From Christensenella sp. UBA6345 (GTDB taxonomy: Bacteria > Bacillota > Clostridia > Christensenellales > UBA1242), in the NCBI GenBank assembly GCA_002437945.1, contig DJSB01000033.1, positions 16,796 to 80,795 on the forward strand: a DNA stretch of 64,000 nucleotides, given 5' to 3'. The translations under genes and the position numbers were made by a program. The notes under the pieces were generated by a model. It ran no database searches, was not told the DNA's origin, and saw only the letters and a program-made list of their open reading frames with translations. Below are positions 352 to 53,824 of this stretch, in pieces; positions within the stretch are counted from its first letter, which is position 1; every line of letters begins with the position of its first letter.

Positions 352-1953
352 TCAATTTTTTACATATTTAGCATTAACAATTTTCTTACGCCTAAAATAT
401 TTTAATTCAGCATAATTAAAACTTCTAAACGCAAATATTAATGCAAAGTAAATTAATGTACCTACACCACCCGATATTAGCGTATACACAAAAACATTTA
501 ATCCGCTTAATAATATTTTTAAGAAATACATTGACACACCAGCAACTATAGCACTAGCAATGGGAGAAACAATAAGTTTTGTAAATGAATAATTAAGTTG
601 AACATATAACTTGATATATTTTAAATTAATTAATGTAGCCATACTTAAAAATATTAAATTACTTATCGCTACACCAAAAATATTTAATTTGGGATTAGAT
701 ACAAATAAAAATATAGATATTTCCCTAACAATTAATGAAATTATAAGGCTGATAAACGGAACAATAGGACGATTAATGCTTTGTAATATAGACGTAAATG
801 TCTGCAAAAATGCATAATAAATAATAGACACCGAACTTATCATAAGCAGTTTATAAGCAAAAGTATACTCATCAATAACTATATCTGTAAGTCCTTTTTG
901 ATATAGAATAGATATAATATCTGGTGCAAAAATTAAAAATACAATAAAGAAAAATAAAGAAATAATCCATGTAATTTTAATAAAAAATGATGTTTTAAAG
1001 ATTACTTCTTTTTCATTGTTTTGTGCGTACAAACCACTTAAGTTGGGTACTATTGCTGTTGCCAATGCTCCACAGAGTAGCACTGGAAGATTAATCAATG
1101 CACTAACTATACCATTACTTATGCCATATAAATTAGTTGCCTGTAAACTAGAAAATCCGGATTTAGTTAATATATTAATAATTAAAAAACTATCTAAAAA
1201 AGTAGTAATAGGTATCACTATTGCACTTAATGTCGCTGGATATGCATATGACACTATTTTTTTGAACGTTTGTGCATATGTTAAATTGGGCGTTTTTGGA
1301 GTTTCAATTTTATATACCACTTTTCTTTTGTATGATACATAATTAATCATTATAAATATAAATGCAAAAAATTCGGATATAGTCACACCCAAAATAGCAC
1401 CAAAAACAGCAAATATTACACCTTTACGCATAAAATAATTGGCCAAAATTAAACCTGATACAAGTTTAACTGCTTGTTCAGCTATGTTATTAAGTAACGT
1501 AGGAACCATATTTTCTTGACCTTGAAAATACCCCCTAATTACCGAAATTAATGATGCGCATATAATTGATGGTGCAATAGCAATGTACCCTACTTTTGCA
1601 TTAGCATTGCCTTGTAAAATAGCAATATTCTCACTAAAAGCAATTAATACACAAGTAAATATTACACTTAATGCAAAAACAAATATTAAAGATGTTTTGA
1701 AAATCATTAGTTCGTTGTGTTTGTTATTATTGATTCGTTCGGTACTTACAAGTCTAGATACAGCAATACTTGTACCAGAACTTATGAGAACAAGCAACAA
1801 ACTATATAATGGAAAAACTAAATAGTATAATCCCATACCATTACTACCTAAAATATTGGTGAGTGGTATCTTGTATAATGCACCTACAAGTTTAGCAATT
1901 ATCCCACCCAATGCAAGGACTAATGCTCCTACCAAAACCGATTGTCTTTTCAT
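352..1953 (-). CDS. MOP-superfamily flippase, SpoVB/YabM/MurJ-like
   Basis: Polytopic membrane protein of ~530 aa with the general look of SpoVB/MurJ exporters. The start is moved to MKRQSVLVG (ATG 1953), which abuts the spoVT stop. B. subtilis has the same spoVT-yabM adjacency. Confidence 0.7.
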   Translation of the reverse strand: MKRQSVLVGALVLALGGIIAKLVGALYKIPLTNILGSNGMGLYYLVFPLYSLLLVLISSGTSIAVSRLVSTERINNNKHNELMIFKTSLIFVFALSVIFTCVLIAFSENIAILQGNANAKVGYIAIAPSIICASLISVIRGYFQGQENMVPTLLNNIAEQAVKLVSGLILANYFMRKGVIFAVFGAILGVTISEFFAFIFIMINYVSYKRKVVYKIETPKTPNLTYAQTFKKIVSYAYPATLSAIVIPITTFLDSFLIINILTKSGFSSLQATNLYGISNGIVSALINLPVLLCGALATAIVPNLSGLYAQNNEKEVIFKTSFFIKITWIISLFFFIVFLIFAPDIISILYQKGLTDIVIDEYTFAYKLLMISSVSIIYYAFLQTFTSILQSINRPIVPFISLIISLIVREISIFLFVSNPKLNIFGVAISNLIFLSMATLINLKYIKLYVQLNYSFTKLIVSPIASAIVAGVSMYFLKILLSGLNVFVYTLISGGVGTLIYFALIFAFRSFNYAELKYFRRKKIVNAKYVKN

Positions 1954-1954
1954 A

Positions 1955-2503
1955 TTATTCCACTTGCTTTGCCATAAAGCATGCAATAGTTTGTAATGTC
2001 TTTACGTCCGCCATAGTATAATTAACACTTTCTATTGTATTAGTAAATGCCACAATCCCACCAACAATGTCCGAATTAGCCAATATTGGTACAATTATTT
2101 GACTATAATATGTATTATCATCATCTACAAACAAATCCAACATTTTTGCGCCATCTGAATGATTGTATAGATAACTTTTTCTATCTTCAAGTATTTCTTC
2201 CAATTGAGAACTTACTTGTCTATTAAGATAATTTTTAACTTTATGACTTGTCGCAATAACATTATCTTTATCCAGTACAATAATATTGTAACCCAATATA
2301 TCTGATACTACATCACAAAATGTTTGTGCAAATTCGGTTATGTCTACAATAGGTGAATATTTGGTAAGTGTTAATTCACCAAATTTATTTATGTATATTT
2401 GAACTGGAGTTCCTTCTTTTAGTCTTAAACTTCTACGTATTTCCTTGGGAATAACAATCCTACCCAATTCATCTATTCTTCTCACAATCCCCGTGTCTTT
2501 CAT
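1955..2503 (-). CDS. spoVT: Stage V sporulation regulator SpoVT (AbrB-type N-domain)
   Basis: MKDTGIVRRIDELGRIVIPKEIRRSLRLKEGTPVQIY closely matches the B. subtilis SpoVT N-terminus. The product from ATG 2503 is 182 aa, preceded by a GGGGG RBS. The first 12 codons of the ORF-track entry are probably not translated. Confidence 0.85.
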   Translation of the reverse strand: MKDTGIVRRIDELGRIVIPKEIRRSLRLKEGTPVQIYINKFGELTLTKYSPIVDITEFAQTFCDVVSDILGYNIIVLDKDNVIATSHKVKNYLNRQVSSQLEEILEDRKSYLYNHSDGAKMLDLFVDDDNTYYSQIIVPILANSDIVGGIVAFTNTIESVNYTMADVKTLQTIACFMAKQVE

Positions 2504-2568
2504 TATAATCCCCCACTTAAAGAATATATTGTATACCAATATTATTTGAAATATCGCAATTAATATAC

Positions 2569-3692: not shown

Positions 3693-6600
3693 TTAACTAT
3701 TATATGTTAACGTGAAAGTTACAGTTGTAACATAGTTAGGATCACTAGTTCCAGTATAAACATAGCCATTTTCTGCTTTGTAATAAACATGGGCTTTGAA
3801 ACTAATCAAATGTAAATCATGAACTAAACTATTAAATCCAGAAATATCACAAGAAATTGTTGAGATAAATCCGGCATTAGTTTGAATTTCACTAAATACT
3901 ATAGTATTTTCTACATCAGTAGTACTTGTATCTTTATCTGCATACAAGCCATCTGATATAGGCTTAAATACAATATTTGTATTGCCAGTAACGGTTATTC
4001 TATCATCACCAGTTAGGTTAATTGTAAATTTATTGTCTACAACATTAGCAGAATAACTATCTTTAATATTGCTTACACCAGCATTCTTTACTAGTTTTAC
4101 ACTAAATTCTCTAATTAATGTATAACTAATAGCAGGATCTGTTTTTGATATAACAACAAGTTTAGCGGTATAATCCAAAATTATATCATTAAGTACTTGA
4201 TTACCCTTAACAACATATTTATATGTTGAAGAATCAATGCTATAGTATTGACTTTCAACCGCACCTATAGTTCTTAAATCAATTATGTCATTAGAATATG
4301 AGCCATTATTTTTCATATCCTTATTAACCATAATCACATATAGTGGGTCTTCTACAGAACTTTCTGTCTGCAATCTAGAATATTCTTCATAGCCCATTAC
4401 TGTACTATCAGAAAGTACCACATATGAAGGGTCTATTATAGTCGAATCATTTTGTTTTAATTCACTATATTTAACATAAGTTAATGCAAAACTTTCTTCA
4501 TATTTTAGTACTGTTCCATTGTTAAGAACAACACCTTCTAGTTGTATATCAACACCATCTTTTGTTAATTTAATATATTTTGAATAGTCAATTCCAGAAT
4601 TATTTTCGTATAAATATAGTTTAGTATTATATTCACTACTACTAAACGCGTTAGTAAATAGCAAGTTATCCATAGTTGTATCGCCAAAATTGTTGGTTAA
4701 GTTAACACTAATAACACTACTAGAAGTATTTGGATTGTACGATACTTTATTTTCATATAATCCAAATTCAGGATCATATGACGAAGTTAATACAGTCCCT
4801 TCTGAAGATATTGCTTTTGTAGATTCTTCTAATTGCCAATTATCAGAATCCTTTCCAACAATAACTTTGATATTAAATGCAGTAGTAATACTTCTATATA
4901 ATTGTTTACAATCAGGTACAATTTTTACAACAAATCTATAACTACCAGTATTATATTGAGCAGATTGAATCCATTGATTTACAATTGCTTTTTCTTCTTC
5001 ACTAATATTTGTTGAAACATCAGAAGAAGATACACTTTCAACTGTAATATTGGCATTATCAACTTGTATAGGAGTAGTAAGTGAAGCATTTTTATCTACA
5101 AAGAACACTTCCATAACATTATCTGTTATTGTTGCTCTAACCGAAAGAATAATAGGAACAAGTTTAATAGTATAGTTTTGAGTAATAGAACCTACTGACA
5201 CTCTTAAAGTAAATTCATACTTACTAGCATCATAAGTTTCAAGAGCATAACATGGGTCAATAATTAATTTACCTTCTTTTATTGATACATATTTACTTGA
5301 TGTTAACAATTCATATTGAAGTTGTACACCGTCAAGTATGTAATAATAATAAATGTCGTTGCCCTTTTGAATAGAAATTACATTCTTATCATTTAAATAT
5401 TCAGCCTTATTTAATGATTGTGAATCATCTCTCATAGTTCCTAATTGATATCCATAAGTAAACAATCCATCATATGAAGTTGAACTAGTTTTAGTAAAAT
5501 CTAGTACAATTTGATTATTGGCTGTATCATAAACAATACCATTATTGTTAGTTACATCAAAACCTTTTGGAGTAACTATAATAGTACCGCCATTACCTAT
5601 CGCAAAGTTCTTTTGGTCTGTATTAGGAATATAGTAGTTACCAGAGAATTGGTATCTAATATAAACAACTTGAGAAGCATTTACACCCGGTAATTTAACT
5701 GTTATTTTTGCAAGTAATGTATTATTATTAGAGATTGTTGGTGGTATGAAATAAATAGTACTATTATCATCACTTAAGTAATAATAATTGCTTGCATTTT
5801 CTACAGATTTGAAGTTGTTATATTCAACTTGACCATTCTTGGTATCACCTAAAGAAATCTCTACAGTGTATTGAATACCTTTAACAAGTTGAGGTTTTAG
5901 TAATGTGTTACTAGTAATCCAATCTTTTGTATTACCCATATCACTACCATTGCCAGTAAAGTATCCTAGGTTAAATAGGTCAATAATTTTAACTCCATTA
6001 GGAGCAGTTAGTCCATTACCAAAATTACCTATATCACTAACATTTTTAATGTTATCAATATTAAAACTTGAACCTGAACTAATATTATCGGTATTAAATA
6101 ATTGTGCAAAATATTCAGTTAAATCAATTGAATTTTCTGGTTTGTTTGGTGTTGGAGTACTACCATTTACATTATATTCAATAGAAGATAATCCAGGTAA
6201 AATTTTGATTTTAATCTTGTTATTTGGATTATAATAATCAACACCTTCATACAGTCTATTATTACTATCTTCCATATTAACTAATCCGCTACGTTTACCT
6301 GTTAAGTCATAGTAATAAGGAATTTCTATTGTTGTGGCTTCTGGCACACTTTTTAGAATTATACAATCAATTGTACCAGCACTAGTAACAATAGATTGAT
6401 ATTGATAATATAACTCTTCTTCTCCGCCTGCTTTAGTATTTAATAATACATTAGCCATATTGCTATAACTTCCACTAGCATTGGTTTGTTGACCTTGTGA
6501 CAAAGCAGTATATCCATTTTCGATTAACTTTAATCCACTTGTAGTATCTATTTCTATTACCGAACCAGCATATGCTGTAAATTCATTTACTACAGTGTTA

Positions 6601-9600
6601 TTATTATCATACTTAAATCCATCATTAGAAATATTAGGATTAATAACTAAATTAATAATTTCTTCATATGGATCAGCACTATCATTTCCCCAATCAGCAT
6701 AATAATTAGCGAATATCTTTGTAGATTGGTTAATTGCTTTTACAGTTACGTTAAATTGTCCTTTATCAACGTTAGTAGTAATAATTTCACTATTTTGTTT
6801 TGTATTACTTGAGTTAAGTTCATATGCATAGCCACGTACAGTAACATGCTTACTTCCTGTATCACTATAATTAAGTGCAGTACCACTATAATCTGTAGGA
6901 TCAATAATTTTATCACCTTCTCTACCATAGCCATTTAATGTTATGGTTCGATAGCCAATAGTATTTTCTTGAGCAGATGCAGAAGTCAAATTGTATGCAC
7001 TACCACCCTTACCCAAATAGTTACTATGTAAATCAATATCAGGAACTAAATTAATAGTATAAGTATAATAATAATTTTCGCCATTATAAGATTTTCTTAC
7101 ATAGAATGTTAATTTATATACCGAACCTACATTATTAGATTTTAATGTTACACTATCATTTGTAGTATCAAAAATTAAATTTAATTTTCTACTTTTATTA
7201 ACATACCTATATAATTTTGTATCAGAATCCTGTTCGTAAAGTACGGTATTAATGTCAATGTTATATGTACTATAACTATCAGTTTTTGGATCATCAATAC
7301 TATAAGTTTTTGCTACTGTTTTTACTTCATTGCCATCTAATACTTTTTCAGAATAAGCAATTTCTTTAATACCAACTTTAATGTCTGACATATTCTCGTT
7401 CGCTAATTGTAGCCATGCAGAACTATCAGAGTGACTTAAAATTGTTGTTTCATTGCCAGAAACGATACGATCAACATTTTCATTAACAGTAATCCTTAAG
7501 TCAGGGAATACTTTAATTTTTAATGTACTATAACTTTCTCCACTAACATGTTGGTTTGTCCATATTCTAAATGAAACTAGAACACCTTTTTCTTCACTGG
7601 TATCATCAAATTTAACATTCAATTGATTGCCTGTATTATAGATTATCTCATTATTAGAAGAAACTCTATAACTGCTTCTATTATCTAAAACAGTCAATCC
7701 TAAATTATCAGTATTGTTATATTTGAATACATATTTAAGTCCATCAATGTTATCGTCACTTAAACTTACATAGTCTAATAAATTGTAAGTATTATTACCA
7801 TATACTTCAATCACTTCACTAGGAGTATTAACTGATACAGTTGGTAAGTTTTTATAAATTTCAAAATTATAATCAATATATGCACCATTAAATAATGTTG
7901 CTCTAACAACTAAAGAATCAGTTGTTTTTTCTGGTGCTTTTGTTATTACTAATGTTCTATTGTTTTCAATAGTACCAAATTCAGAGCCTGTAATAATACT
8001 AAAGGTAATATATTTTCCATTAGTTATATCAACTAACTTTGTAATATCCAAGTCTTCGTTATTTTCGTCTTTATATGTTAATTGATATTGTGTAGAACTT
8101 CCGTCTACTTTAGTAATTGTAACTAATGAATTTCCAATATATGTTTGGATTCTGTTATTGTCATTAATATAGTTACTTAATAAATCCACTCTAGAATTAT
8201 TCATTACTTTTTCAGAAGAATCTACTAATGGATAATTAGTTACTAATTTATAGTTAGGTTTAAGAATAAACGCATATTCATATGGAGCATTAACTGGGTT
8301 AATCTCGGTATCAATTAATAACTTATATCTTACATCGTCATTAACCGAATTCTTTATTCTTAATACCAACTTTTGTAATGAACCATCTTTATTCTTTGTA
8401 ATTATAATCTCACAATTATCATCATCGGTTACAGAGAAATATCCATCGCCATCATATCTTGTTAAAACATATTGATTAAACAATTGTCCCAATAGTTCGT
8501 TATTATCAACACCACGCAATGAGATTATATTATCTAATGGAGAAGTACTATCAAACAAAGTTATATCATAATTACCTAATTCAATTATGCCATCATAGCC
8601 ACTCTCGCCGATTTTTCTATCACAATTGTAATTCTGGAAATACTGTATTTTACTTTCTTCATTAAAATACTCATTTTCATAAGCGTTAATATGATATTCT
8701 ACACTAGCACTTACATTAACATATATAGTACTACTATTTTTATCTCCAGCAATATAGTCATCAGATGCTACACTGTTGAATTTAACTACAATAGGTATAT
8801 TTAAGTTGCTAGAAATACTACGAGTACGCATAATACCACTCTTTATAGCAGTATCAGCATCTCCTGGGAACAATGCTGTATAGTTTTTATCATCAGTAGG
8901 ATAATCATATTGCATTGTTACTAATTTACCAATTACTTTAACAGTATCTTCTATAGATAAGGTTTCATTGGTTGTTTTATTTTTAATCTTAATGAAACTA
9001 TCTACTATATTACCATTACCACCACTAAATTTAGTTTCATCTTGATATGTTTCATTTTTAAAGAAATTATAATCCAAACCAGATGATAATTTTAATGGAG
9101 TAGAAGTTTTATCTTTAATAGCAGTATTAAGAGTTAATTCATAACCTGGTTCTACCACCATAGCAATAACTGTATTATCTATTTTTTCTATAACTTCTTC
9201 TTTATATCTTAAAATGATTTGTTCATTACCATCTGAATCAGTGGTTTTTACTTCATAAGGTATATAATATTTCAATTTCAAATTTACAGGTTTGCTATTT
9301 AATACTTCCCTTGGTTTAATTTCTGTAGTTAATTTAACAGTTTTTGGATAAGTAGTAGTATCATTTTCATCGTGTGTAAACTCGTTAGGGTCATATACAT
9401 TAATGGTTTCTACGTCATCAACCAACATATCTGCAAATCCACTAGTAGAAGCATCTATTTCAAAACTTGTTTTTAAGTCAATAGTTTCTTTTGTAACAGT
9501 ACCATCGCCATTATCTGTTTGTTTTGCTTGTTTAACTGTAATAATTTTACTTAAATCTATCACACCTTCATGTTCACTTGTAGTAGATGTTACTATATTA

Positions 9601-12600
9601 CCAGCAGGTTTATCAATAGTTACCGAACTCTTTACATTAATATAATAGAATCCTTGAGTGTCGCCAAATGGAGAAGTAATAGTAATCTTAACTCTAGTAT
9701 CTGCGGTTAAGTACGATGCTTGTACTCTTAATTTACCATTAATAGTTTGAGTCTTTTTAGCACTTAATAAATTACCATCTGCACCTATAAATGATAGTGC
9801 ATTAACATTATCAATTTCGTATGTACAATATGCTTGAATTTCATCATAACCTGCCAATGTAGCAGTGATTCGCTTTGTAGTAGTAATATTATTAGGAGCA
9901 TTAGCAGTTTCATAGGTTTTAGCAATATCATTGTAAATATAATAATTGCTATTATTACCATCTTTTAGTTTGAATTCTTCAAATAAATCAATTGGTGTAC
10001 CAGCAGTTAATTCTTGAATATTTTCATTGTTACTATTGTTAAGTACATAACCTTTAGTGCTTTCATTGATATTTACTTCAGAATAAGAACTAAATACAAC
10101 ATCATTTTGATATAGAACTATTACGGTAGAAAGTGTATGTTTATATATAAAACCAGAATTGGTTTTGTATACACCAAGAGTACAAGTTGCTCTTAATTTA
10201 ACACCATCTTTAGTACCTTTAATAGGTTTTAATACACCCGCAATTAAAGTTCCGTCATTAACTGACGAATTGGTTACAACATCCAAATAATCAGTTGGTT
10301 TATCCGTAGGACTAGGTGGATTACCTTCAAAGTCCACTGTCCAATTAATAGAAATCAATTCTGTATCAAGAGATCGTTTATCTGTAAATGGTTTTAAATA
10401 ATTTTGGATATATTCAGCATTTCTATAAGCCTTATCAATTTTTGCATTAAATTGATTATCGTCAACACCTTTTTGTATATCAAAATCATAGTTAACATTA
10501 ATATAGAATTGATTATCTGAATATCTTCCATTTTCGAATTGTTCTTTCCATATAATAGTATGTGACTGACCACCCACTTCTAGTGATCCTACTCTAGGAG
10601 CAATCTTGTGTTCTGGAGTATTAACTTCAGTTTCTAGCACGAATGAATCAATTGCAGCGTAGTTAACTATCATATTTACTGAAGAACGGCTTGAGTTGAA
10701 TACAGAAGTAAGTTCGCTATTAGAACTAGCAATTGCTTTTAAGTCAAAGCCGACTGGAGTATAGTTGGCAGGAGCAGATTTATTAACTTTAGCAGTAACC
10801 CCCAAGTCAAACCATACTTTTTCTTCCATATAACTAATTTTTAAACTAATATCTGTAGAATTAGCCACAAATGAATTAGGAGTAATTTGTAATCCAGATT
10901 GAGCAAGTTTCATGGCTTCGGTTAAATTGGTTTTATAATCAATAACAGTACCATTAACATAATTCTTATTACCAGCATCAAAAGTTCCGCTAGTATTTAA
11001 GTAGAATGGTGTAGCAACCATCTTATACTCTTCACCTGCTAACAATTGAATAGTGTCAGTAGTAGAAGCATCGCCTGTATCACTTACGTTACGCAATGTA
11101 TATTGTTCTTCGCCATCTATTGTGTTAACAGTATAGAAATTTAGTTTTTCTAGATGAGTATAAATATTGATTGATATTTTGTTGGATTGTGCGGCTATTT
11201 GATATACTCCGTTATAGCCTTCTTCCCCTTCACTAACACCATTAACATCAATAGGTCTGCCTAAATAGTCTGTTTTGACAACAGCGGCAAACACTTCAAG
11301 TGAATCCCCATTAGTACTGTTAATCGCTTCTAGTGTACATTTTCCGCCAACATAATAATCTATCTCGTAAGCATTAATCTTGGTAGTATTATATGGCATT
11401 TGTTTTAGAATTGGAGTACCGCCATCAGCACAAAGTTTAACTTTAAAGAAACTGGTATCTGTAGCACCATCTTTAGTTTTTGCACTAGTATCTGTAACAA
11501 AGAACTTAACTAAAGTATATGTAGGAGTTTTTCCATCAGGTCCTGTTAACTCGTATCTTGTAGAATCTAACTCTTGTCTATAACTACGTCCGCCAACATT
11601 AGTGGTATTAGTAATCATAGTAGTATCAAGAGCATTTTGTGGATTGGTTTGAGAAGTAAACAATCTTAAATCTGAAACAATAACTTCAGTTGCTTCTACA
11701 CCAATATCTACAAATTTATCGCCTGGTGTATAATAATCTAATTCAGTTTTTACTTTTGACGAAGGTATATAGAAACGTAATCTATAATTACCTTTTAATC
11801 TATCTTCATTAGAAATAGGATTAATACATCTTATTTTCCATACTGGATTATCTATAGATGTAGGATTTTCAATTTCAAATATATTAGATAAATCAAAATC
11901 AAAAGTACTTGTACTTGTTTCACTCTTATTCTTGATAGGTAAAATACGAATTTCGTTAAGTCTATATTTTAAATTTTCTGGTGTGAAATCTTCTTGATTG
12001 GTAGGAATTAATGATAATCCAAAAGTACTCTGTAATTCATTTACATTATATTGATTCAAATCACCATGTGGTTCAAATTCAACTTTTGAAGTAACTGTCG
12101 ACTTAACTTCTTTAATATCTATCTCTTCAATATTGAAAATAGATTTACTTTCAACATACATATAGAAGTATGCAGCATTCTTTTGTGCACTAATTGTATC
12201 ATTAATCTTGATATAATTTTCTCCAGCCGAATTAGTCTGTGTAATTGCGGTAATGAACGCTGCACCATTTTCATACTCTAATGTGCCATTAATAGTATTA
12301 TAGTAAGGACGAGTATCTGCTTTAATATAATCTTGATATTCTGAAATATAATTGCTTAAATCAGTATAATACTCTTCACGTTTAAAATTGTTTTCAGCAT
12401 CATAATATTTTGTATCATTTTCATCTACGTACTCATCTTGCATTGAGTATGTACGTAATGCTTTAGCAGAAATTATTACTGGTGCTCTAGCACTTGTTAC
12501 TGCTTTGGCTGTATATTCAATAAATTTATGTTTGCTTAATCTTTTACCATGGCAAGTAGAACCTAAATAATTACCATTGGCATCTTTGAATGGTCCTTTG

Positions 12601-13283
12601 TGTCCGTGTGCAATGTAATCCGGACAATAGAATTCTTCTTTTGGAGTGCCTGCAGTTAATATCTGTAAAGCATTAGGGTCTCCACTTTTTATGGTTATGT
12701 CTTTATAAGATTCTAACAAACTAGTTTCATTACCAGTGTTAGGATTTAATGCTAAATTAGGATTGGTAAATACATATAACCCAAAACTATTAGAACCAGC
12801 ATTAATCAATTTTTCTTCATCAGCACCATCATAGTCAGATGCAAGTACTAATCCATTGTTAGGAATAGGAACATCAACTAAAATCTTCAAGTTAGTGGAC
12901 GAAACAACAAGTTGTGTTTTTGCTTGGATAACAACTTCACCGCCAATATTATTGCCATTGGCATCTTTTTTAAGTTTAATAGTAAATGGTTCACCAGCCT
13001 TAACTGTGCTAGGAATTTCAACTATATTGCTACCATCTGCATAAACCAATTTAAGTTCGACATCTAACTGATTGGCGTTGGCAGGCAAAAAGTTAATGGT
13101 TGTAGTATAATCATCAACCACTCTGACTTTATCAGTTTCCCAAGAAAGTGCGGTAATATTAATTTTTTTATTACTGAACACACCAGTAATAGCCGCTATA
13201 CCCGCAGCGACACCTATTAAGGCAATCAAACTACCGAGTACAATACCAATAATTTTTAATGCTTTTTTCATTTGTTTCTCCAC
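3693..13283 (-). CDS. Giant (3196 aa) N-terminally membrane-anchored surface protein, function unknown
   Basis: Single uninterrupted ORF with a GGAG RBS. The N-terminal hydrophobic helix is ALKIIGIVLGSLIALIGVAAGIAAITGVF. The rest is N/T/S/Y/I/V-rich and looks beta-rich, with very few Cys. I saw no LPXTG, choline-binding or S-layer motif and no obvious long internal repeats. Confidence 0.85.
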   Translation of the reverse strand: MEKQMKKALKIIGIVLGSLIALIGVAAGIAAITGVFSNKKINITALSWETDKVRVVDDYTTTINFLPANANQLDVELKLVYADGSNIVEIPSTVKAGEPFTIKLKKDANGNNIGGEVVIQAKTQLVVSSTNLKILVDVPIPNNGLVLASDYDGADEEKLINAGSNSFGLYVFTNPNLALNPNTGNETSLLESYKDITIKSGDPNALQILTAGTPKEEFYCPDYIAHGHKGPFKDANGNYLGSTCHGKRLSKHKFIEYTAKAVTSARAPVIISAKALRTYSMQDEYVDENDTKYYDAENNFKREEYYTDLSNYISEYQDYIKADTRPYYNTINGTLEYENGAAFITAITQTNSAGENYIKINDTISAQKNAAYFYMYVESKSIFNIEEIDIKEVKSTVTSKVEFEPHGDLNQYNVNELQSTFGLSLIPTNQEDFTPENLKYRLNEIRILPIKNKSETSTSTFDFDLSNIFEIENPTSIDNPVWKIRCINPISNEDRLKGNYRLRFYIPSSKVKTELDYYTPGDKFVDIGVEATEVIVSDLRLFTSQTNPQNALDTTMITNTTNVGGRSYRQELDSTRYELTGPDGKTPTYTLVKFFVTDTSAKTKDGATDTSFFKVKLCADGGTPILKQMPYNTTKINAYEIDYYVGGKCTLEAINSTNGDSLEVFAAVVKTDYLGRPIDVNGVSEGEEGYNGVYQIAAQSNKISINIYTHLEKLNFYTVNTIDGEEQYTLRNVSDTGDASTTDTIQLLAGEEYKMVATPFYLNTSGTFDAGNKNYVNGTVIDYKTNLTEAMKLAQSGLQITPNSFVANSTDISLKISYMEEKVWFDLGVTAKVNKSAPANYTPVGFDLKAIASSNSELTSVFNSSRSSVNMIVNYAAIDSFVLETEVNTPEHKIAPRVGSLEVGGQSHTIIWKEQFENGRYSDNQFYINVNYDFDIQKGVDDNQFNAKIDKAYRNAEYIQNYLKPFTDKRSLDTELISINWTVDFEGNPPSPTDKPTDYLDVVTNSSVNDGTLIAGVLKPIKGTKDGVKLRATCTLGVYKTNSGFIYKHTLSTVIVLYQNDVVFSSYSEVNINESTKGYVLNNSNNENIQELTAGTPIDLFEEFKLKDGNNSNYYIYNDIAKTYETANAPNNITTTKRITATLAGYDEIQAYCTYEIDNVNALSFIGADGNLLSAKKTQTINGKLRVQASYLTADTRVKITITSPFGDTQGFYYINVKSSVTIDKPAGNIVTSTTSEHEGVIDLSKIITVKQAKQTDNGDGTVTKETIDLKTSFEIDASTSGFADMLVDDVETINVYDPNEFTHDENDTTTYPKTVKLTTEIKPREVLNSKPVNLKLKYYIPYEVKTTDSDGNEQIILRYKEEVIEKIDNTVIAMVVEPGYELTLNTAIKDKTSTPLKLSSGLDYNFFKNETYQDETKFSGGNGNIVDSFIKIKNKTTNETLSIEDTVKVIGKLVTMQYDYPTDDKNYTALFPGDADTAIKSGIMRTRSISSNLNIPIVVKFNSVASDDYIAGDKNSSTIYVNVSASVEYHINAYENEYFNEESKIQYFQNYNCDRKIGESGYDGIIELGNYDITLFDSTSPLDNIISLRGVDNNELLGQLFNQYVLTRYDGDGYFSVTDDDNCEIIITKNKDGSLQKLVLRIKNSVNDDVRYKLLIDTEINPVNAPYEYAFILKPNYKLVTNYPLVDSSEKVMNNSRVDLLSNYINDNNRIQTYIGNSLVTITKVDGSSTQYQLTYKDENNEDLDITKLVDITNGKYITFSIITGSEFGTIENNRTLVITKAPEKTTDSLVVRATLFNGAYIDYNFEIYKNLPTVSVNTPSEVIEVYGNNTYNLLDYVSLSDDNIDGLKYVFKYNNTDNLGLTVLDNRSSYRVSSNNEIIYNTGNQLNVKFDDTSEEKGVLVSFRIWTNQHVSGESYSTLKIKVFPDLRITVNENVDRIVSGNETTILSHSDSSAWLQLANENMSDIKVGIKEIAYSEKVLDGNEVKTVAKTYSIDDPKTDSYSTYNIDINTVLYEQDSDTKLYRYVNKSRKLNLIFDTTNDSVTLKSNNVGSVYKLTFYVRKSYNGENYYYTYTINLVPDIDLHSNYLGKGGSAYNLTSASAQENTIGYRTITLNGYGREGDKIIDPTDYSGTALNYSDTGSKHVTVRGYAYELNSSNTKQNSEIITTNVDKGQFNVTVKAINQSTKIFANYYADWGNDSADPYEEIINLVINPNISNDGFKYDNNNTVVNEFTAYAGSVIEIDTTSGLKLIENGYTALSQGQQTNASGSYSNMANVLLNTKAGGEEELYYQYQSIVTSAGTIDCIILKSVPEATTIEIPYYYDLTGKRSGLVNMEDSNNRLYEGVDYYNPNNKIKIKILPGLSSIEYNVNGSTPTPNKPENSIDLTEYFAQLFNTDNISSGSSFNIDNIKNVSDIGNFGNGLTAPNGVKIIDLFNLGYFTGNGSDMGNTKDWITSNTLLKPQLVKGIQYTVEISLGDTKNGQVEYNNFKSVENASNYYYLSDDNSTIYFIPPTISNNNTLLAKITVKLPGVNASQVVYIRYQFSGNYYIPNTDQKNFAIGNGGTIIVTPKGFDVTNNNGIVYDTANNQIVLDFTKTSSTSYDGLFTYGYQLGTMRDDSQSLNKAEYLNDKNVISIQKGNDIYYYYILDGVQLQYELLTSSKYVSIKEGKLIIDPCYALETYDASKYEFTLRVSVGSITQNYTIKLVPIILSVRATITDNVMEVFFVDKNASLTTPIQVDNANITVESVSSSDVSTNISEEEKAIVNQWIQSAQYNTGSYRFVVKIVPDCKQLYRSITTAFNIKVIVGKDSDNWQLEESTKAISSEGTVLTSSYDPEFGLYENKVSYNPNTSSSVISVNLTNNFGDTTMDNLLFTNAFSSSEYNTKLYLYENNSGIDYSKYIKLTKDGVDIQLEGVVLNNGTVLKYEESFALTYVKYSELKQNDSTIIDPSYVVLSDSTVMGYEEYSRLQTESSVEDPLYVIMVNKDMKNNGSYSNDIIDLRTIGAVESQYYSIDSSTYKYVVKGNQVLNDIILDYTAKLVVISKTDPAISYTLIREFSVKLVKNAGVSNIKDSYSANVVDNKFTINLTGDDRITVTGNTNIVFKPISDGLYADKDTSTTDVENTIVFSEIQTNAGFISTISCDISGFNSLVHDLHLISFKAHVYYKAENGYVYTGTSDPNYVTTVTFTLTYNS

Positions 13284-13436
13284 TTATTTATTAAACAAAC
13301 TAAAGTAAATTATTATTTAATTTAATATGTGCTACTAACAGAATATTATTAATAGCACAACCAAATTTTTCGGTTATCAAATATCTAACTATATCTATAT
13401 ACTTGTAATAGACCATCATAAATCAACTAAAAGCGA

Positions 13437-13532
13437 GCGTAGCAATATTTTCGGATAACTGATGGCTATCAAATTTAAGTATGGCATTTCGGAACGAAAT
13501 GCTGTGTCCGTATGGACACAATAGACGTAGTC
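13437..13532. repeat. 96-bp direct repeat, copy 1 (identical to 13860-13955)
   Basis: A base-by-base comparison of the two stretches shows 96/96 identity. The period is 423 bp. Confidence 0.95.
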
Positions 13533-13859
13533 ATAACTTTTTAATCACTTAAATTATATTATCTGAAGTTGTCGGCAAGCAGTCCGAAGGAATATTTGCC
13601 AGCAACTGATGTTTATTCAAACTATGATGCCACGAGTTATCGTGGAATTGCAATTTGCAATTTGATTTATGAACATAGTGAATAAAGCAACATCATATTG
13701 TTTATACCAAAGAAGTTTATACAAGCGACACGCAGTGTCATTTGATATAAACTGACGCAGAATCAAATTTAAGTATGGATTTAAAGATGATACACTAATA
13801 AATATATCCTTTTTTGACATCTTCTTAAATTATATTGCCGGAAGTTAGACGAAAGCAGT

Positions 13860-13955
13860 GCGTAGCAATATTTTCGGATAACTGATGGCTATCAAATTTA
13901 AGTATGGCATTTCGGAACGAAATGCTGTGTCCGTATGGACACAATAGACGTAGTC
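13860..13955. repeat. 96-bp direct repeat, copy 2
   Basis: Identical to 13437-13532. Confidence 0.95.
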
Positions 13956-13967
13956 TATCATACTTAA

Positions 13968-13996
13968 ATTATACTTTTCTCCATAATAATTGTCAA
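13968..13996 (-). promoter_or_regulatory. Consensus SigA-type promoter TTGACA-17 nt-TATAAT
   Basis: The minus strand reads aagTTGACAattattatggagaaaagTATAATttaagta, with -35 at 13991-13996 and -10 at 13968-13973. AT-rich sequence lies upstream. Confidence 0.75.
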
Positions 13997-14094
13997 ACTT
14001 AAAACATAATATATAGCCATATATAAAAGTTTTTGTAATAAGATAATATATATAATATTTATCACAATTTACATATAAAAATAGTTTAGAAAAA

Positions 14095-14142
14095 AACCAA
14101 AAAATAAAAAAAGTTTTAAAGCAAATATTTTACTTTAAAACT
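14095..14142 (-). terminator. Rho-independent terminator of the 14152-14775 gene
   Basis: Perfect 10-bp stem AGTTTTAAAG/CTTTAAAACT (14112-14121 / 14133-14142), followed on the minus strand by a long T-rich run. Confidence 0.8.
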
Positions 14143-14151
14143 TTAACAAAT

Positions 14152-14775
14152 TTATCTAGTTTTTTCTAATCTATTATATTTTTCCATTAAGATTTTATTT
14201 TCGATTTTCTTTTGATTGATAATTTTTTGAGACTCTTCATCTATTTCCATTTTTGGAACTATCATCTCATAAAATTCTGGTCCTTTTTTAGAAAATTCAA
14301 AAAGTATACGACTTACAATACCAAAAGAAATACCGCTATGATCCTGACTACAGAAAATTTTCTTTGCTTCTTTAAAATCTGGATTACTATCTAAAGATTC
14401 CATAATTTTTAAAGCATCTTCAAGGTCTTGTCCATGATACATTCCTTTCGCTCTTGCTTCTACACATTTTGCCCAATCTTTTTGTCTTTCAGGATAAATA
14501 ATCTTATTACCACGTTCAATCCATTGTGGTATTTTATCCAAAGCATCTTTATTCTCTTTTTCTCTTTCTTGTATCATTTCTTCAACTTGTTTATCATATT
14601 CTGCTTTAGTACAACCCATTACTGCTTGATAAGCAGAATCCATTGTTACTGTTTCAGAATCCAACTTTTGTCCATTAAACTCACAAGTTGCTTTAATTCC
14701 TTTAGCACGTAAATCTATTAAACATTCTACAGTTTCATCTAATGTGTGCTTTGGTTTAATTTGTCCTAAATCCAT
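14152..14775 (-). CDS. Hypothetical cytoplasmic protein (207 aa)
   Basis: ORF with a GGAGG RBS, charged and helical-looking. I recognise no family. Confidence 0.6.
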   Translation of the reverse strand: MDLGQIKPKHTLDETVECLIDLRAKGIKATCEFNGQKLDSETVTMDSAYQAVMGCTKAEYDKQVEEMIQEREKENKDALDKIPQWIERGNKIIYPERQKDWAKCVEARAKGMYHGQDLEDALKIMESLDSNPDFKEAKKIFCSQDHSGISFGIVSRILFEFSKKGPEFYEMIVPKMEIDEESQKIINQKKIENKILMEKYNRLEKTR

Positions 14776-14890: not shown

Positions 14891-17800
14891 TTATTCTCCA
14901 GTTGTATATTGTAAATCTAAAGTATTATCATAATTAATTTTTGATTTTTCATCATCAGATACTATCCCTTTACAACAATAAATACCTATAACACTATAAT
15001 TAATATCACCAAATAAATTAATATTTTTAATAGTAATATTGTCAATAATTGTGCCATAGTTTCTGTACATAATGCCACCAACTTCCAACTTATTGACATT
15101 AACTTCACTATCTTTAGTAATATTAATATCTAAATCAATATTAGAAATCGTAGAGTCTTTTCTTCCAGAATATACAATTCCACCAATATGTTGTCTACTT
15201 TGACAACAAGTTAGATTCAAAGTAATATCTACGTCGTTTGTAATCTTATTATTATCAAAAACTATACCAGCAAACTTATTAAATCCGCTAGATATAAGCG
15301 TACCTGTAATATTGCTTATAGTATTATTATTGGTAGACGCAATTGATGAAAAACAAATTTTAAAATTATCAGATTTATTATTAAAGATTATTTCTGTATT
15401 ATTAAATGTTACATTTTTAATATTACCATTATTAGTTATACATAATAATGAAGAATTATATCCCGTATTAATATCTTCCAAAAGTACCGTCATATTGTAA
15501 TTATCAAATATAACATTATCTATTGTTCCATAGTTATCATTTACTATTAATGTAAAATCATTATTGGCATATGTATTTTCAGTAATTGATGTACTTCCCG
15601 ATATCATCATATTTTTCACAACTGCATTAATACCTAATTTATTAAAAATAGTACGTTTAAGATTAATTAATTTTTTATTATTAAAATCAATTTCACCATT
15701 ATAATTATCTACAAGATAATCATTGGTTACATTATTAAAATCCAAATCTGCAGTGACAATATAATTTTTATCAGGTTCAATATTGATTAAATCATTAACA
15801 GAAGAAATTGAATAAATTTCTTTATATTCTACAGTATATACTACACTATCAAGTATTTTATCATTACATATAGCACTGATGGTAACATTACCACAGCCTA
15901 CAAAATTAACTACACTATCTTGTACATATGCGATTTCTGTATTACTACTAACAATTGTAAATGTATCTGTACATTTATATTGATCATATTTAAGAGTTAT
16001 CTTATAATCAAGTAATATATTAGATATAAAGAAATAATTAATTGTAGCATCTTCATTTAAAAAGTCAAAATCAACTATTGGATTAGTCACAACAATGTTC
16101 ACAACATATGTGATAGACATATCACAATATTGTACTTTGATAGTATATTTACCTAGTGAATCAAATATATATTTAGAATTGTTAACAATTGCTTTATCAT
16201 TAACAAATATAATAGTTTCGTAGTCATTTAATTCAATTTGATTGCTGAATACACTACCTGTTAAATAAATACTTGAATTTAATTCACAAGTTAACTCTTG
16301 ATTATCTGATACTATTTTATCATCAAAATATGCGCAGATGTGAGTAGGAACATACTTAACATTAACTGTTAAATTCTTGATAACTTCACCACATTTTAAA
16401 CTAATTATTGCAATACCCTTGCATTTAGCAATGATTGTGTTATCAGTAATTTCTATTATGTCACTATCGCAAACAATTTCTACATTCTTATCTATTGCAT
16501 AGATAGGCTCAACATCATAATTAAGTTGATACGTATCTAATCCTTTATCCCCATTGATATATAGGTCAATGGTTTCATTATCAACATTAATTGAAGATAC
16601 CTTAATTGGTTCGACATTAATTTTATATGAAATACTATAGTTTGTAATATCATTACTTACTATATTTAATGTACTAATACCCAATTTCTTTGCATATAGT
16701 TTATTTTCTTTTACTTCTACACTATCGCCAACAATAGTATATTTAAGGCAATTAGGTTTAACATCAACACCTTTATGACTTAAATTAATATCGGCATATA
16801 CCAACTCATTTTCGCTGATATCAAGATTATAATAATCTTCTGATGGCAAATATAAAGTATAGACATTATCTTTTGGTAATAATTCCTGTTCATTAAACAA
16901 TGAAAAATTAATACCTGTTATTGTATTATAGACATTGACAGTAAAATCACTAGTTGCATTTTTATTAGAAATATCACAGATATTATTATAAGTAGCAGTA
17001 ATATTATAATTACCAGTTGTATTAAAAGTAATTTCAAATTTATTATCACTAATATATTTATAATTGCAATTATTAAATGTAATCAATGAATAATCATTTA
17101 ATGAAGTATTTATTGTAGCGATATATGTTGTTTTTGTATAATATTCTTCACAATTATTGTTATCTAGGCTTAACTCAAAATCTATTGTATTAATAGGTTC
17201 TTTTACTATTACATTAATTGATTTTGTTAATTCGCCTGTTTTGGATAACACTTTTATAGTAACATTACATTCGCCTGATTTAATTGCAGTAAAAGTGCCA
17301 TCAACAATAGAAAGTGTATCGTTAGATATAGTTATATCTCTAGATAAATTATAATCACTCGGAACAACATCATAAGTAAAATTGCCAGTATCGCCTACAA
17401 ACATAGTTACACTATCATTAACTTTAAAATTATTAAATTTAATATTAGTAATATCTTCAGCATAATGATTATCAACTACTGTAACTGAAAAACTTTTACT
17501 AATATGCACGTGGTCAGCAGTTGATACTTCTACACTAACAGTATCTTGGCCTACTTTTATAGGTACAATTTCGCCAGTTATATAGTTATATTCAACACAA
17601 TCATTAACACTTGTAACAGTAATGTCACAATTATAATCCAAAGGTAATATAGTTAGATTATTGTAAGCATTTTCTTTTAAATCTACAATAATATTATCTT
17701 TAACAAAACTTAAATCTGTAGCAAATATTGGCTTTACACTTACTGTAAAAGTTGTGGTTGTAGTTTTAAATGTATTATTACCAATCATAATAGATGCGGT

Positions 17801-18112
17801 TAATTTGAACGAACCTGTTTTATTAAATACAATCTTATCATTAATTATTGTCGCAACACTAGTATCATCTATACTATATGTTGGTCGAACAGTGGCATTA
17901 CTTGGCAACACTGTAATATTAATATTATTAAGTGCTATTTCTTCGCCAACGAAATAATTATGCTTATCATTATCAAATTTAATATCACTAGCATAAACGA
18001 TATTTGATTCAGCCAAGGCAAGTCCTGACGAATTATCTCCTTTGTTAGATGAACCACAACCGGTCAAAAGAAATATTGCACAAACTATAAATAAATATTT
18101 AAAATATCTCAT
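14891..18112 (-). CDS. Large lipoprotein with repeated Ig-like (Big_2-type) modules and a C-terminal repetitive GLUG-like/beta-helix-like region
   Basis: Signal peptide plus lipobox (FLLTGC). There are at least 6 recurrences of the Big_2-like pattern (e.g. SVATIINDKIVFNKTGSFKLTASI, LSIVDGTFTAIKSGECNVTIKV, IEITDNTIIAKCKGIAIISLKC). The last ~300 aa carry repeated N-I-x-N/IGG-containing segments. Confidence 0.7.
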   Translation of the reverse strand: MRYFKYLFIVCAIFLLTGCGSSNKGDNSSGLALAESNIVYASDIKFDNDKHNYFVGEEIALNNINITVLPSNATVRPTYSIDDTSVATIINDKIVFNKTGSFKLTASIMIGNNTFKTTTTTFTVSVKPIFATDLSFVKDNIIVDLKENAYNNLTILPLDYNCDITVTSVNDCVEYNYITGEIVPIKVGQDTVSVEVSTADHVHISKSFSVTVVDNHYAEDITNIKFNNFKVNDSVTMFVGDTGNFTYDVVPSDYNLSRDITISNDTLSIVDGTFTAIKSGECNVTIKVLSKTGELTKSINVIVKEPINTIDFELSLDNNNCEEYYTKTTYIATINTSLNDYSLITFNNCNYKYISDNKFEITFNTTGNYNITATYNNICDISNKNATSDFTVNVYNTITGINFSLFNEQELLPKDNVYTLYLPSEDYYNLDISENELVYADINLSHKGVDVKPNCLKYTIVGDSVEVKENKLYAKKLGISTLNIVSNDITNYSISYKINVEPIKVSSINVDNETIDLYINGDKGLDTYQLNYDVEPIYAIDKNVEIVCDSDIIEITDNTIIAKCKGIAIISLKCGEVIKNLTVNVKYVPTHICAYFDDKIVSDNQELTCELNSSIYLTGSVFSNQIELNDYETIIFVNDKAIVNNSKYIFDSLGKYTIKVQYCDMSITYVVNIVVTNPIVDFDFLNEDATINYFFISNILLDYKITLKYDQYKCTDTFTIVSSNTEIAYVQDSVVNFVGCGNVTISAICNDKILDSVVYTVEYKEIYSISSVNDLINIEPDKNYIVTADLDFNNVTNDYLVDNYNGEIDFNNKKLINLKRTIFNKLGINAVVKNMMISGSTSITENTYANNDFTLIVNDNYGTIDNVIFDNYNMTVLLEDINTGYNSSLLCITNNGNIKNVTFNNTEIIFNNKSDNFKICFSSIASTNNNTISNITGTLISSGFNKFAGIVFDNNKITNDVDITLNLTCCQSRQHIGGIVYSGRKDSTISNIDLDINITKDSEVNVNKLEVGGIMYRNYGTIIDNITIKNINLFGDINYSVIGIYCCKGIVSDDEKSKINYDNTLDLQYTTGE

Positions 18113-51284: not shown

Positions 51285-51328
51285 TAAAAAAACACATTAA
51301 GCATAAACAACTTAATGTGTTTTTTTAT
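51285..51328 (+). terminator. Terminator after the peptidase pair
   Basis: AACACATTAAG...CTTAATGTGTT followed by T7. Confidence 0.8.
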
Positions 51329-51421
51329 TTTCTTATTATAAGAATATTTTTTACTATTATTAATGCAATCATCTAAAATATTTTTAATTAACTATAGTAT
51401 CTAAATTATTAACCCGATAAT

Positions 51422-52363: not shown

Positions 52364-52465
52364 ATGCAAATATAATAAGTACTTATATTTTATTTATAGA
52401 TTAAATAATAAAGTAATGATTAAAACTATACATAAACTATGTGATGTTGATTTACTTACAATGCT

Positions 52466-52590
52466 CATAAATCAAATTGCTATCAAAATTCCACGATAAA
52501 TCGTGGCATCACAGTTTGAATAAACATCAGTTATACGAAAATATTGCTTCGCACTGCTTTCGTCTAACTTCCGATAATATAAATATAATG
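52466..52590 (+). ncRNA. Second-locus copy of the beta hairpin plus alpha hairpin module family seen at 13.4-14.0 kb
   Basis: ~70 nt are nearly identical to the reverse complement of 13612-13672, including the CCACGA-loop-TCGTGG hairpin at 52491-52506. An alpha hairpin at 52525-52571 follows, with the same architecture. A terminator lies ~80 nt downstream on the + strand. Confidence 0.55.
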
Positions 52591-53607: not shown

Positions 53608-53824
53608 TAAAAATCCTCCTTTAAACTTTTCGTGTTTGTTTTATAAAAACTTTATTTTTTCGACTAATATGTCGAATAATGTGTGAGGATTTAAAAAAAC
53701 TCTTTCGCCACATAGAGTAAACGAAAGAGTTTTGAATATACATATAAAAAACTATTTGTTTACCTCGGCAAGATTTACTTTATACTTGCTGTCTTTGGCA
53801 AGACTTCTTTTAAAAACCGATAGT
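53608..53824 (-). promoter_or_regulatory. rplJ 5' leader with an internal intrinsic terminator (L10-leader-type attenuator)
   Basis: The leader contains a CUUGCcaaagacaGCAAG hairpin. It also has a strong stem, AAACTCTTTCG...CGAAAGAGTTT plus T7, at 53693-53733, upstream of the RBS. Firmicutes L10 leaders are known to act by attenuation. Assignment to the Rfam L10 leader has not been verified. Confidence 0.55.

Follow-up and report, generated by a model that had tools for sequence, protein, structure and literature searches.

What is the compact, tRNA-sized structure that lies between a strong promoter and a giant bacterial gene? We have analysed a 64,000-nt stretch of the Christensenella sp. 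UBA6345 contig DJSB01000033.1 (hereafter the window), in which the segment 13895-13970 had been described, in the original prediction, as a perfect 76-nt four-way junction. It lies in an 868-bp gap between a 207-aa open reading frame (ORF) and a 3192-aa ORF, just downstream of the ribosomal-protein/rpoA/rplQ cluster, and according to the promoter and the gene direction its meaningful strand is the minus strand. The segment is not a lone RNA gene-like object, but one module of a dispersed repeat family, in which the junction is always followed by a conserved hairpin, here called S. This family is previously undescribed, and its identity as a modular interspersed repeat is well supported. With regard to its role, we lean somewhat towards a structured repeat that is co-transcribed with its neighbours and acts in cis at the RNA level, and that would supply the -10 box and the 5' hairpins of the giant-gene transcript at this locus.

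We have folded the segment with RNAfold (ViennaRNA), and the four-way junction is both the minimum free energy and the centroid structure on either strand. Its closing helix has 12 bp and its arms 8, 7 and 6 bp, with loops of 3–4 nt and linkers of 0–1 nt. The junction as predicted thus holds, except that the middle arm, given before as 6 bp, has 7 bp because the two 1-nt linkers T and A pair together. The folding energy is -33.5 kcal/mol for each strand (z = -8.8 and -9.2), a value that is not reached in any of 200 dinucleotide shuffles. Since the energies are equal on both strands, all pairs are Watson-Crick, without G.U. The fold is also kept in the wider context of 13880-13985, as RNA and, with z = -10.8, as DNA. 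Read on the minus strand, the closing helix is AAUUUAAGUAUG/CAUACUUAAAUU, and the arms are AUAGAC-UAC-GUCUAU, UGUGUCC-AUAC-GGACACA and GCAUUUCG-UUC-CGAAAUGC.

The size of the segment is tRNA-like and its outline resembles a cloverleaf, so that a tRNA-like gene, a transfer-messenger RNA (tmRNA), a riboswitch or another catalogued RNA comes to mind. We regard the chance of this as practically negligible. ARAGORN finds 0 tRNA or tmRNA genes in the whole window, in agreement with the earlier remark that tRNA hallmarks are lacking, and Rfam 15 gives no match in 13200-14200, neither at the gathering threshold nor at E <= 10. In addition, a related array in another contig (L089:5300-6100) yields only noise against Rfam, far below gathering scores. 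The 3–4-nt loops and 0–1-nt linkers do not fit such RNAs, and the junction and loop nucleotides are not conserved in the way that tRNA identity or ligand binding would demand. On the ARAGORN and Rfam negatives, these candidates have been rejected. For annotation, the case is a warning that tRNA-sized "cloverleaves" can be modules of repeats.

The plan of the repeat becomes clear when the minus strand is read beyond the junction. A unit of ~150 nt begins with UAUAA-ACUAU, continues with the closing helix and three hairpins joined by 0–1-nt linkers, and then has a single-stranded linker AGUUUGAAUAAACAUC, the hairpin S and a tail UCCGAUAAUAUAA. S itself has 41 nt and consists of a 12-bp stem, a 4x4 internal loop, a 3-bp stem and a triloop. 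The closing helix differs in sequence between units; one version is GUGAUG...CAUCAC with the extension AAACU/AGUUU. Units are found singly or as head-to-tail arrays of 2–4, only between genes, and the start-to-start spacing in arrays is 145–147 nt. UAUAA is the boundary across the whole family, which agrees with the earlier observation that the -10 box TATAAT belongs to the boundary of the repeated unit.

To see how far the family extends, we have searched metagenome contigs with a degenerate pattern of S, and 19 contigs or loci were matched. The flanks of these loci show one unit plan everywhere, and the minimum free energy folds of independent units are four-way junctions. About half of the matched contigs end inside an array, since a multicopy repeat breaks assemblies; the repeat therefore accounts for assembly breaks in metagenome-assembled genomes (MAGs) of the host lineage. 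From ten units of the common junction type, here called class A, we have built a covariance model, R1, with 155 positions and 45 pairs. It finds at least 28 sense-strand units at E < 1e-7 in 21 contigs of the same species and its relatives, all of them intergenic, and it covers the junction at 13895-13970 in full length within a match at 13826-13971 (80 bits). The model is ready for use in a repeat census.

Outside this circle the family has not been detected. R1 has no match in 61 distant Bacillota loci (~1.1 Mb), nor in the 21-kb rpoA loci of the relatives L009-L019 and L021-L027 (the L numbers denote the other assemblies, contigs and loci compared); the locus of L020 has a copy of S only. 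The exact boundary pattern AAATTTAAGTATGG-N40-70-CTTAAATTAT matches none of 185,579 species genomes, the S pattern matches no viral contig of IMG/VR, and blastn of the whole intergenic region against phage and plasmid collections is negative. A literature search has found neither the S sequence nor a paper that ties four-way junctions to intergenic repeats, and the first 200 supplementary files of a catalogue of structured RNAs from the human microbiome do not contain S either. Overall, the family combines multicopy dispersal, a narrow range with unfixed positions, and a conserved structure, as small interspersed structured intergenic repeats do.

Some copies consist of S without a junction and lie between a stop codon and an intrinsic terminator (L020:17592-17685 and L094:8532-8606). 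The host species of one of them has an RpoA with only 75% identity. In L094, AAACATCAG follows directly on the unit head AACTAT, which looks like a precise removal of the junction.

The structure of the family is conserved by paired changes. The original prediction would have been weakened if homologs did not conserve the pairings; the related units do keep the four helices, with many compensatory changes. In a sequence alignment, RNAalifold reports compensatory changes in 17 of 43 pairs. In the R1 alignment, 94.0% of cells pair, against 75.8% for column shuffles and 34–42% when the partners are slid; double-sided changes are seen in 34 of the 45 pairs (174 cells), and the covariation score is 0.329, against 0.097 for shuffled and 0.035–0.052 for slid controls, numbers that come from a model-fitted alignment in which many units are close copies. 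Two comparisons are independent of the R1 alignment. The junction at 13895-13970 (module E3) is only 19–36% identical to the other junction modules, i.e., at random level, but agrees with them in all four helices and their placement; the S of its unit is 83–100% identical to other S copies. As far as sequences can tell, the junction module is thus fixed in architecture and free in sequence, and the linker, S and tail are nearly constant. Between strains the same tendency is visible within E3 itself: in L001 the loop bases alone differ, and in L104 one whole loop is replaced and an A-U pair has become U.G on the minus strand.

The junction is the first of four units that form a head-to-tail array on the minus strand (13404-13973), in the leader of the 3192-aa gene (Table 1). 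Three elements had not been listed before: a third copy of the closing-helix boundary at 13766-13831, the hairpin S after every copy, and the single unit at 52433-52586. The modules differ in their state of preservation. In unit 2, module E2 is degenerate: the three-arm junction is gone, and what is left is a 6-bp helix inside the 8-bp closing helix AAUUUAAG/CUUAAAUU; the variant hairpin Sv of this unit is also found after class-C junctions in other contigs (L089:5772-5928, L100:12310-12467, L100:4032-4186 and L093:1-138). Unit 3 has the closing helix AUGAUG/CAUCAU and the arms UUGCUUUAU.., AUUGCAAAUUGCAAU and CCACGAUAACUCGUGG. Unit 4 contains the second copy that had been called degraded, correctly so: two of its arms are intact and identical to those of unit 1, the closing helix has ~10 bp, and the arm that comes first on the minus strand (the third in the earlier description) has decayed to 3 bp. 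R1 matches this last unit weakly, at 13404-13540. The single unit at 52433-52586 sits between the convergent genes rplI (+) and rplL (-), past the rplI terminator.

Table 1 Positions of the repeat modules and of the associated features in the window.
Feature	Position	Strand	Basis or remark
Sigma-70-type promoter, TTGACA (13996-13991), 17-nt spacer, TATAAT (13973-13968)	13968..13996	-	12/12 match
Unit 1, four-way-junction module (E3)	13895..13970	-	folds; R1 match
Unit 1, conserved hairpin S and tail, CAUCAGUUAUCCGAAA-AUAU-UGC-UAC-GCA-CUGC-UUUCGUCUAACUUCCGGCAAUAUAA	13830..13887	-	helix covariation
Unit 2, junction module E2, degenerate	13766..13831	-	folds, sequence
Unit 2, variant S hairpin Sv (CAGUUUAUAUCAAAUGACACUGCGUGUCGCUUGUAUAAACUUC...)	13702..13757	-	same variant at other loci
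Unit 3, four-way junction of the common class-A type	13618..13703	-	R1 match 13550-13704, 168 bits
Unit 3, S hairpin, diverged (S')	13554..13611	-	compensatory changes in outer and inner stem
Unit 4, junction module E1	13472..13555	-	95% identity with unit 1
Unit 4, truncated S hairpin (5' half); end of the array	13437..13464	-	sequence
Separate single unit, class-A junction and S	52433..52586	+	R1, 170 bits
Giant ORF, 3192 aa, ATG at 13271 preceded by GGAG	3693..13271	-	no Pfam domain
Terminator-like hairpin and T-run after the 207-aa ORF	14099..14144	-	by eye; missed by terminator scan

The consensus promoter named in the original prediction has been found again with a full match; what has to be added is its strand, as it reads on the minus strand from 13996 to 13968. 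It is conserved in L001, L002, L104 and L009. Its -10 box doubles as the UAUAA boundary of unit 1 and overlaps the 5' arm of the closing helix. The predicted start site (~13961) falls within this helix, so that only 3–5 nt of the 5' arm would be transcribed. With such a start inside the 5' arm, a transcript from the array's own promoter cannot form the 12-bp closing helix. Folding of the 693-nt leader (z = -9.3) bears on the same point. The three arms persist and start 2–4 nt from the 5' end, whereas the 3' arm CUUAAAUU of the former closing helix pairs with AAUUUAAG at the head of unit 2 and thereby encloses S. That is, in the context of the full transcript the arms of the predicted junction stand and its closure does not. 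According to the start site and the leader fold, the RNA of unit 1 is probably a set of three 5'-terminal hairpins and not a closed cloverleaf, and the "perfect cloverleaf" would be a property of the DNA repeat unit. Upstream, the terminator-like hairpin at 14099-14144 would separate upstream transcription from the array promoter.

These features suggest how the array may work. The units would be transcribed together with their flanking genes, within 5' or 3' untranslated regions, and would act in cis as compact, nuclease-resistant RNA structures that affect mRNA stability or processing. At the giant gene, a consensus promoter may have taken over the boundary of unit 1 for its -10 box, and the mRNA of this 9.6-kb gene would open, within ~3–5 nt, with three very stable hairpins. 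Stable hairpins so close to the 5' terminus are known to protect Gram-positive mRNAs from 5'-end-dependent decay, and such protection would suit a 9.6-kb mRNA. Among the references collected in PMC3997798 are those for the stabilisation of mRNAs by 5'-terminal stem-loops. The likeness to the stabilisers of this type, such as the B. subtilis aprE leader and E. coli ompA/papA, lies in stable hairpins a few nucleotides from the predicted 5' end. On the other hand, the known hairpins are single and locus-specific, while those described here are copies of a dispersed repeat and their role is a predicted one. For the giant gene, the repeat is thus suggested as the source of both the -10 box and the 5'-end structure of the mRNA.

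Two other regulatory features of the array have been considered and rejected. Internal promoters for each unit do not hold, as the internal TATAAT boxes have no matching -35 sequence upstream. The resemblance of the linker and S to TTGAAT-N17/18-AATATT is weak and is absent from Sv. By inspection, sequestration of the Shine-Dalgarno sequence by CUUCC of the tail would involve poor pairing over a variable distance (25–55 nt).

A DNA-inversion switch also comes to mind, because exact 12-bp inverted repeats AATTTAAGTATG/CATACTTAAATT, 52, 181 and 475 bp apart, are found next to a strong promoter, and the gene downstream is giant and probably codes for a surface protein. As recombinase sites, the repeats would allow the segment near the promoter to flip and so switch this gene on and off. 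We consider this very improbable. The segment is oriented alike in the window and in four other assemblies (L001, L002, L104 and L009). Of the promoter, which stands outside the repeats, only the -10 box overlaps one arm; no invertase is found nearby, and no recombinase family is found among the scanned proteins of the window. Moreover, the closing-helix logic recurs in dozens of units with other sequences, and for this reason the inverted repeats are helix arms rather than recombination sites.

Does the structure act as RNA or as single-stranded DNA? The main rival of a cis-acting RNA is a selfish non-autonomous element acting as single-stranded DNA, in which the junction and S would be folded-DNA signals for an HUH/Y1 transposase (IS200/IS605, REP/RAYT) or for a junction-binding recombinase, and any effect on mRNAs would be incidental. 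We take it to be unlikely. Several properties of the fold are in its favour. All pairs of E3 are Watson-Crick with equal energy on both strands, and the antisense strand is the more stable one by 2–4 kcal/mol: RNA parameters show this for 20 of 22 units, DNA parameters for 22 of 22. The apical triloops on the antisense strand are C(GAA)G or C(GTA)G, that is, of the C(GNA)G form, which is a very stable type of DNA mini-hairpin. REPINs likewise keep their hairpins by compensatory changes. In addition, every unit is bounded by a TATAA/ATAAA-like sequence, which recalls the TTTAT motif linked to the mobility of bcr elements (PMC6542083).

The orientation of the units points in the other direction. 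Where testable, they follow the gene direction: they are sense to the genes in 3 of 3 co-directional gene pairs and in 4 of 4 cases with S ending 22–35 nt from the downstream ORF, and, as the two sets overlap at L097, 6 of 6 informative loci are gene-sense. Several copies lie between a stop codon and an intrinsic terminator. The U.G pair of the L104 variant on the gene-sense strand corresponds to C.A on the other strand, which speaks against DNA acting there. More generally, the consensus pairs of the sense strand contain 35 G.U against 14 A.C; a single terminal pair, however, accounts for 18 of the G.U cells. A choice of strand from thermodynamics and G.U counts has been given up since the two signals contradict each other. 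With the promoter and the gene-sense orientation as context, action as RNA is favoured over action as single-stranded DNA.

Mobility is the other point on which the two explanations differ, and here the strains are informative. The giant-gene leader has four units in the window, L001 and L002, two in L104, and none in the species representative L009, which keeps the promoter and the first 21 nt (TATAATTTAAGTATGATAGAC) and then has an unrelated hairpin. The spacer between rplI and rplL is 397 nt with the unit and 247–251 nt without it in three other assemblies; the unit is present in the window, L108, L110, L112 and L114-L116 and absent from L109, L111 and L113. The unit-less site reads ...AAAACTATACTTAAATTTAATACA..., which is scar-like and consists of a unit head and linker. 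Conversely, L109 has a unit just downstream of a DUF1540 gene (L109:4038-4121), while the counterpart in the window (51285-51421) has none and its sequence TTAATAATTTAGATACTATAGTTAATT resembles a joined tail, head and linker. Thus filled and empty alleles are seen at three sites, and this presence and absence, with the different copy numbers of the arrays, fits a mobile element.

The details of these sites fit a mobile element less well. No clean target-site duplication has been found in two comparisons of filled and empty sites. Since the empty sites are unclean and there is no unambiguous duplication, gain and loss by recombination fits better than cut-and-paste; probably the recombination takes place between the constant parts, and the arrays grow and shrink in this way. 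No transposase, RAYT or recombinase was noticed beside any array, the scanned window proteins giving no such match in Pfam or NCBIfam, and the junction modules are dissimilar at random level, unlike young transposon copies. A comparison with miniature inverted-repeat transposable elements goes both ways. The arms of the closing helix are inverted repeats and TATAA-like sequence stands on both sides, but the arms differ between unit classes, no parent insertion sequence or clean duplication has been found, and the phage and plasmid collections have no match.

In the array-less locus of L009, a long hairpin ACUUGCAUCAAUA...UAUUGAUUUUGCAAGU follows straight after the shared 5' end AAGUAUGAUAGAC (L009:15084-15140). 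A 5'-terminal hairpin of the giant-gene mRNA appears to be kept despite unrelated sequence in L009 and the window. The 207-aa ORF is absent from L009, as is the repeat array.

Overall, we still lean towards the co-transcribed, cis-acting repeat, and several points have to be set against it. Both the co-transcription of the units and any effect on mRNA are inferred. The orientation statistic comprises six loci and is confounded with replication direction, the strand evidence from G.U counts is weak, and the predicted thermodynamics do not favour the gene-sense strand, whose complement also bears the DNA-type triloops. The covariation shares the limits of its alignment stated above. By the predicted start, unit 1 cannot form its 12-bp closing helix in the transcript of its own promoter. 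Finally, neither a clean target-site duplication nor a mobilising enzyme has been found.

Action in trans is another way in which the units could function as RNA. The arrays would be precursors of stand-alone, protein-bound small RNAs of ~150 nt, cut at UAUAA by a host RNase or by self-cleavage, and the A/U-rich linker between junction and hairpin would be an Sm/Hfq-type site, as in U1-like architectures. The plan of the unit, in which a single-stranded A/U tract joins a four-way junction to a 3' hairpin, does agree with this, as do the head-to-tail arrangement with a sharp boundary, the conserved single-stranded segments and the covarying stems. Besides, the rplI-rplL unit lies past the rplI terminator, without an obvious mRNA role. 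Nevertheless, this is quite improbable in our view, as no unit has a recognisable promoter or terminator of its own and no known ribozyme or small RNA family is matched even at E <= 10. A putative pseudoknot, in which the S loop (AUAUUGC) would pair with the tail (GCAAUAU), has also been rejected. Both sides are invariant or A/U-only and there is no covariation, and in L020 one base of the S loop differs while the tail, judged by eye, is unchanged.

It is conceivable, though improbable, that the units are a new class of autonomous module, in which a sequence-free, perfectly stacked junction and a constant hairpin recruit a dedicated protein. If so, the unit could be an RNA particle released from the arrays at UAUAA, either through a self-cleaving motif of a new kind within the constant part or through a specific RNase, or it could be a folded single-stranded DNA that mimics a Holliday junction for an undescribed junction-recognising mobilisation enzyme. 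Either option would explain why the architecture is conserved at random-level sequence identity.

Among the known repeats, the closest parallels are BOX of S. pneumoniae and bcr1 of the B. cereus group. BOX is a composite repeat whose tandem modules vary between strains; it is expressed and is believed to alter the expression of co-transcribed genes (PMC3049150). Like the present family, BOX (boxA-boxB(n)-boxC) is small, intergenic, dispersed and modular, with a strain-variable number of internal modules, is predicted to fold extensively as RNA, and has no transposase of its own (PMC3049150). The BOX modules, however, are alike from copy to copy, whereas here the junction is hypervariable within a fixed four-helix architecture and S is constant. 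BOX also folds as stem-loops and not as a perfect four-way junction, has no sequence similarity to our units, and belongs to a different host clade.

The bcr1 repeat, ~155 bp long, is transcribed, and its cruciform-like RNA is kept by compensatory changes (PMC3184786). It shares with our family, as do the group A bcr elements in general, that copies are intergenic and multiple and that their position is not conserved between strains; the complement of the bcr motif TTTAT, ATAAA, resembles the unit boundary UAUAA(A). On the other hand, bcr1 forms two independent stem-loops and not three arms with a closing helix and an extra hairpin, it is flanked by 5-bp direct repeats while no clean duplication is seen at the present units, and head-to-tail arrays in which variable and constant modules alternate have not been reported for it. 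No similarity to plasmid records has been found; these should include plasmids of the B. cereus group, so that this is a weak test. The perfect four-way junction, its hypervariability beside a near-invariant hairpin and the regular alternation of the two make the family distinct from both BOX and bcr1.

Other systems are less similar. REP sequences and their BIME clusters (REPINs, RAYT) are palindromic and extragenic, form clusters with conserved linker motifs and affect mRNA stability (PMC3184786), and their hairpin is kept by compensatory evolution as well. They are, however, single G+C-rich hairpins of 20–40 nt, often in alternating orientation, and not 150-nt head-to-tail units with a junction, and a RAYT gene is lacking among the Pfam and NCBIfam matches of the scanned window proteins. 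CRISPR and integron cassette arrays also have a constant element (here S, 58 nt with its tail) that alternates with a variable segment downstream of a promoter. Here the variable segments fold on themselves into four-way junctions and are found again at several loci; they are neither unique spacers nor genes, and the period is ~146 nt; no cas gene or integrase lies nearby, and S is found in no viral contig. An attC-like recombination site has been rejected on inspection, as the polarity of S (GTT...AAC) is the reverse of that of attC core sites. A type III toxin-antitoxin RNA array, which has repeats of ~34–45 nt and a toxin gene, has been rejected too, since the present units have ~146 nt, the arrays occur at many loci and the downstream genes are unrelated.

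BOX, bcr, ERIC and REP repeats are common, yet their function and spread are mostly obscure, and the present family has an unusually clean signature. Its strain-variable arrays near promoters and terminators offer a good system for asking what selects the structure, whether mRNA protection, processing or mobilisation as folded DNA.

The window is chromosomal and AT-rich (~30% G+C) and comes from an uncultured, Christensenellales-like member of the human-gut Clostridia. Its RpoA is 99% identical to that of a MAG from the Hadza gut, and the next relatives are labelled Christensenella or Catabacter. Nearly all genes of the window are on the minus strand. The consecutive ORFs after rplQ, all on this strand, are those of 1073 aa (14891-18112), 207 aa (14152-14775) and 3192 aa (3693-13271), none of which has a significant Pfam or NCBIfam match. 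The 1073-aa ORF shows only faint Ig-like or PKD matches, and a look-up of the 207-aa protein has found it not on record. Across the window, Rfam at its gathering threshold yields a single family, the ribosomal protein L10 leader (RF00557, 64.7 bits) at 53684-53816 (-), upstream of rplJ-rplL. At 352-2539 (-) there are SpoVB-like and SpoVT-like genes, with NCBIfam scores under the curated cut-offs, and such sequences suggest that the organism or its ancestors are spore-forming.

The contigs that bear the repeat also contain two further dispersed palindromic families, CCCCGCCTGTCATTATGAGCG...CGTAATCTAGGCGGGG and ATATGTCATTCTGAGCGTAGTCGAACCC...GGAATCCCAAAACG, neither of which occurs in the window. 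Their copies are at L093:7051, L097:1441/1600/1893/2186/2478, L095:3745, L100:12092, L101:3393 and L105:1384/1838/1952, and some of them are in tandem at a spacing of 293 nt.

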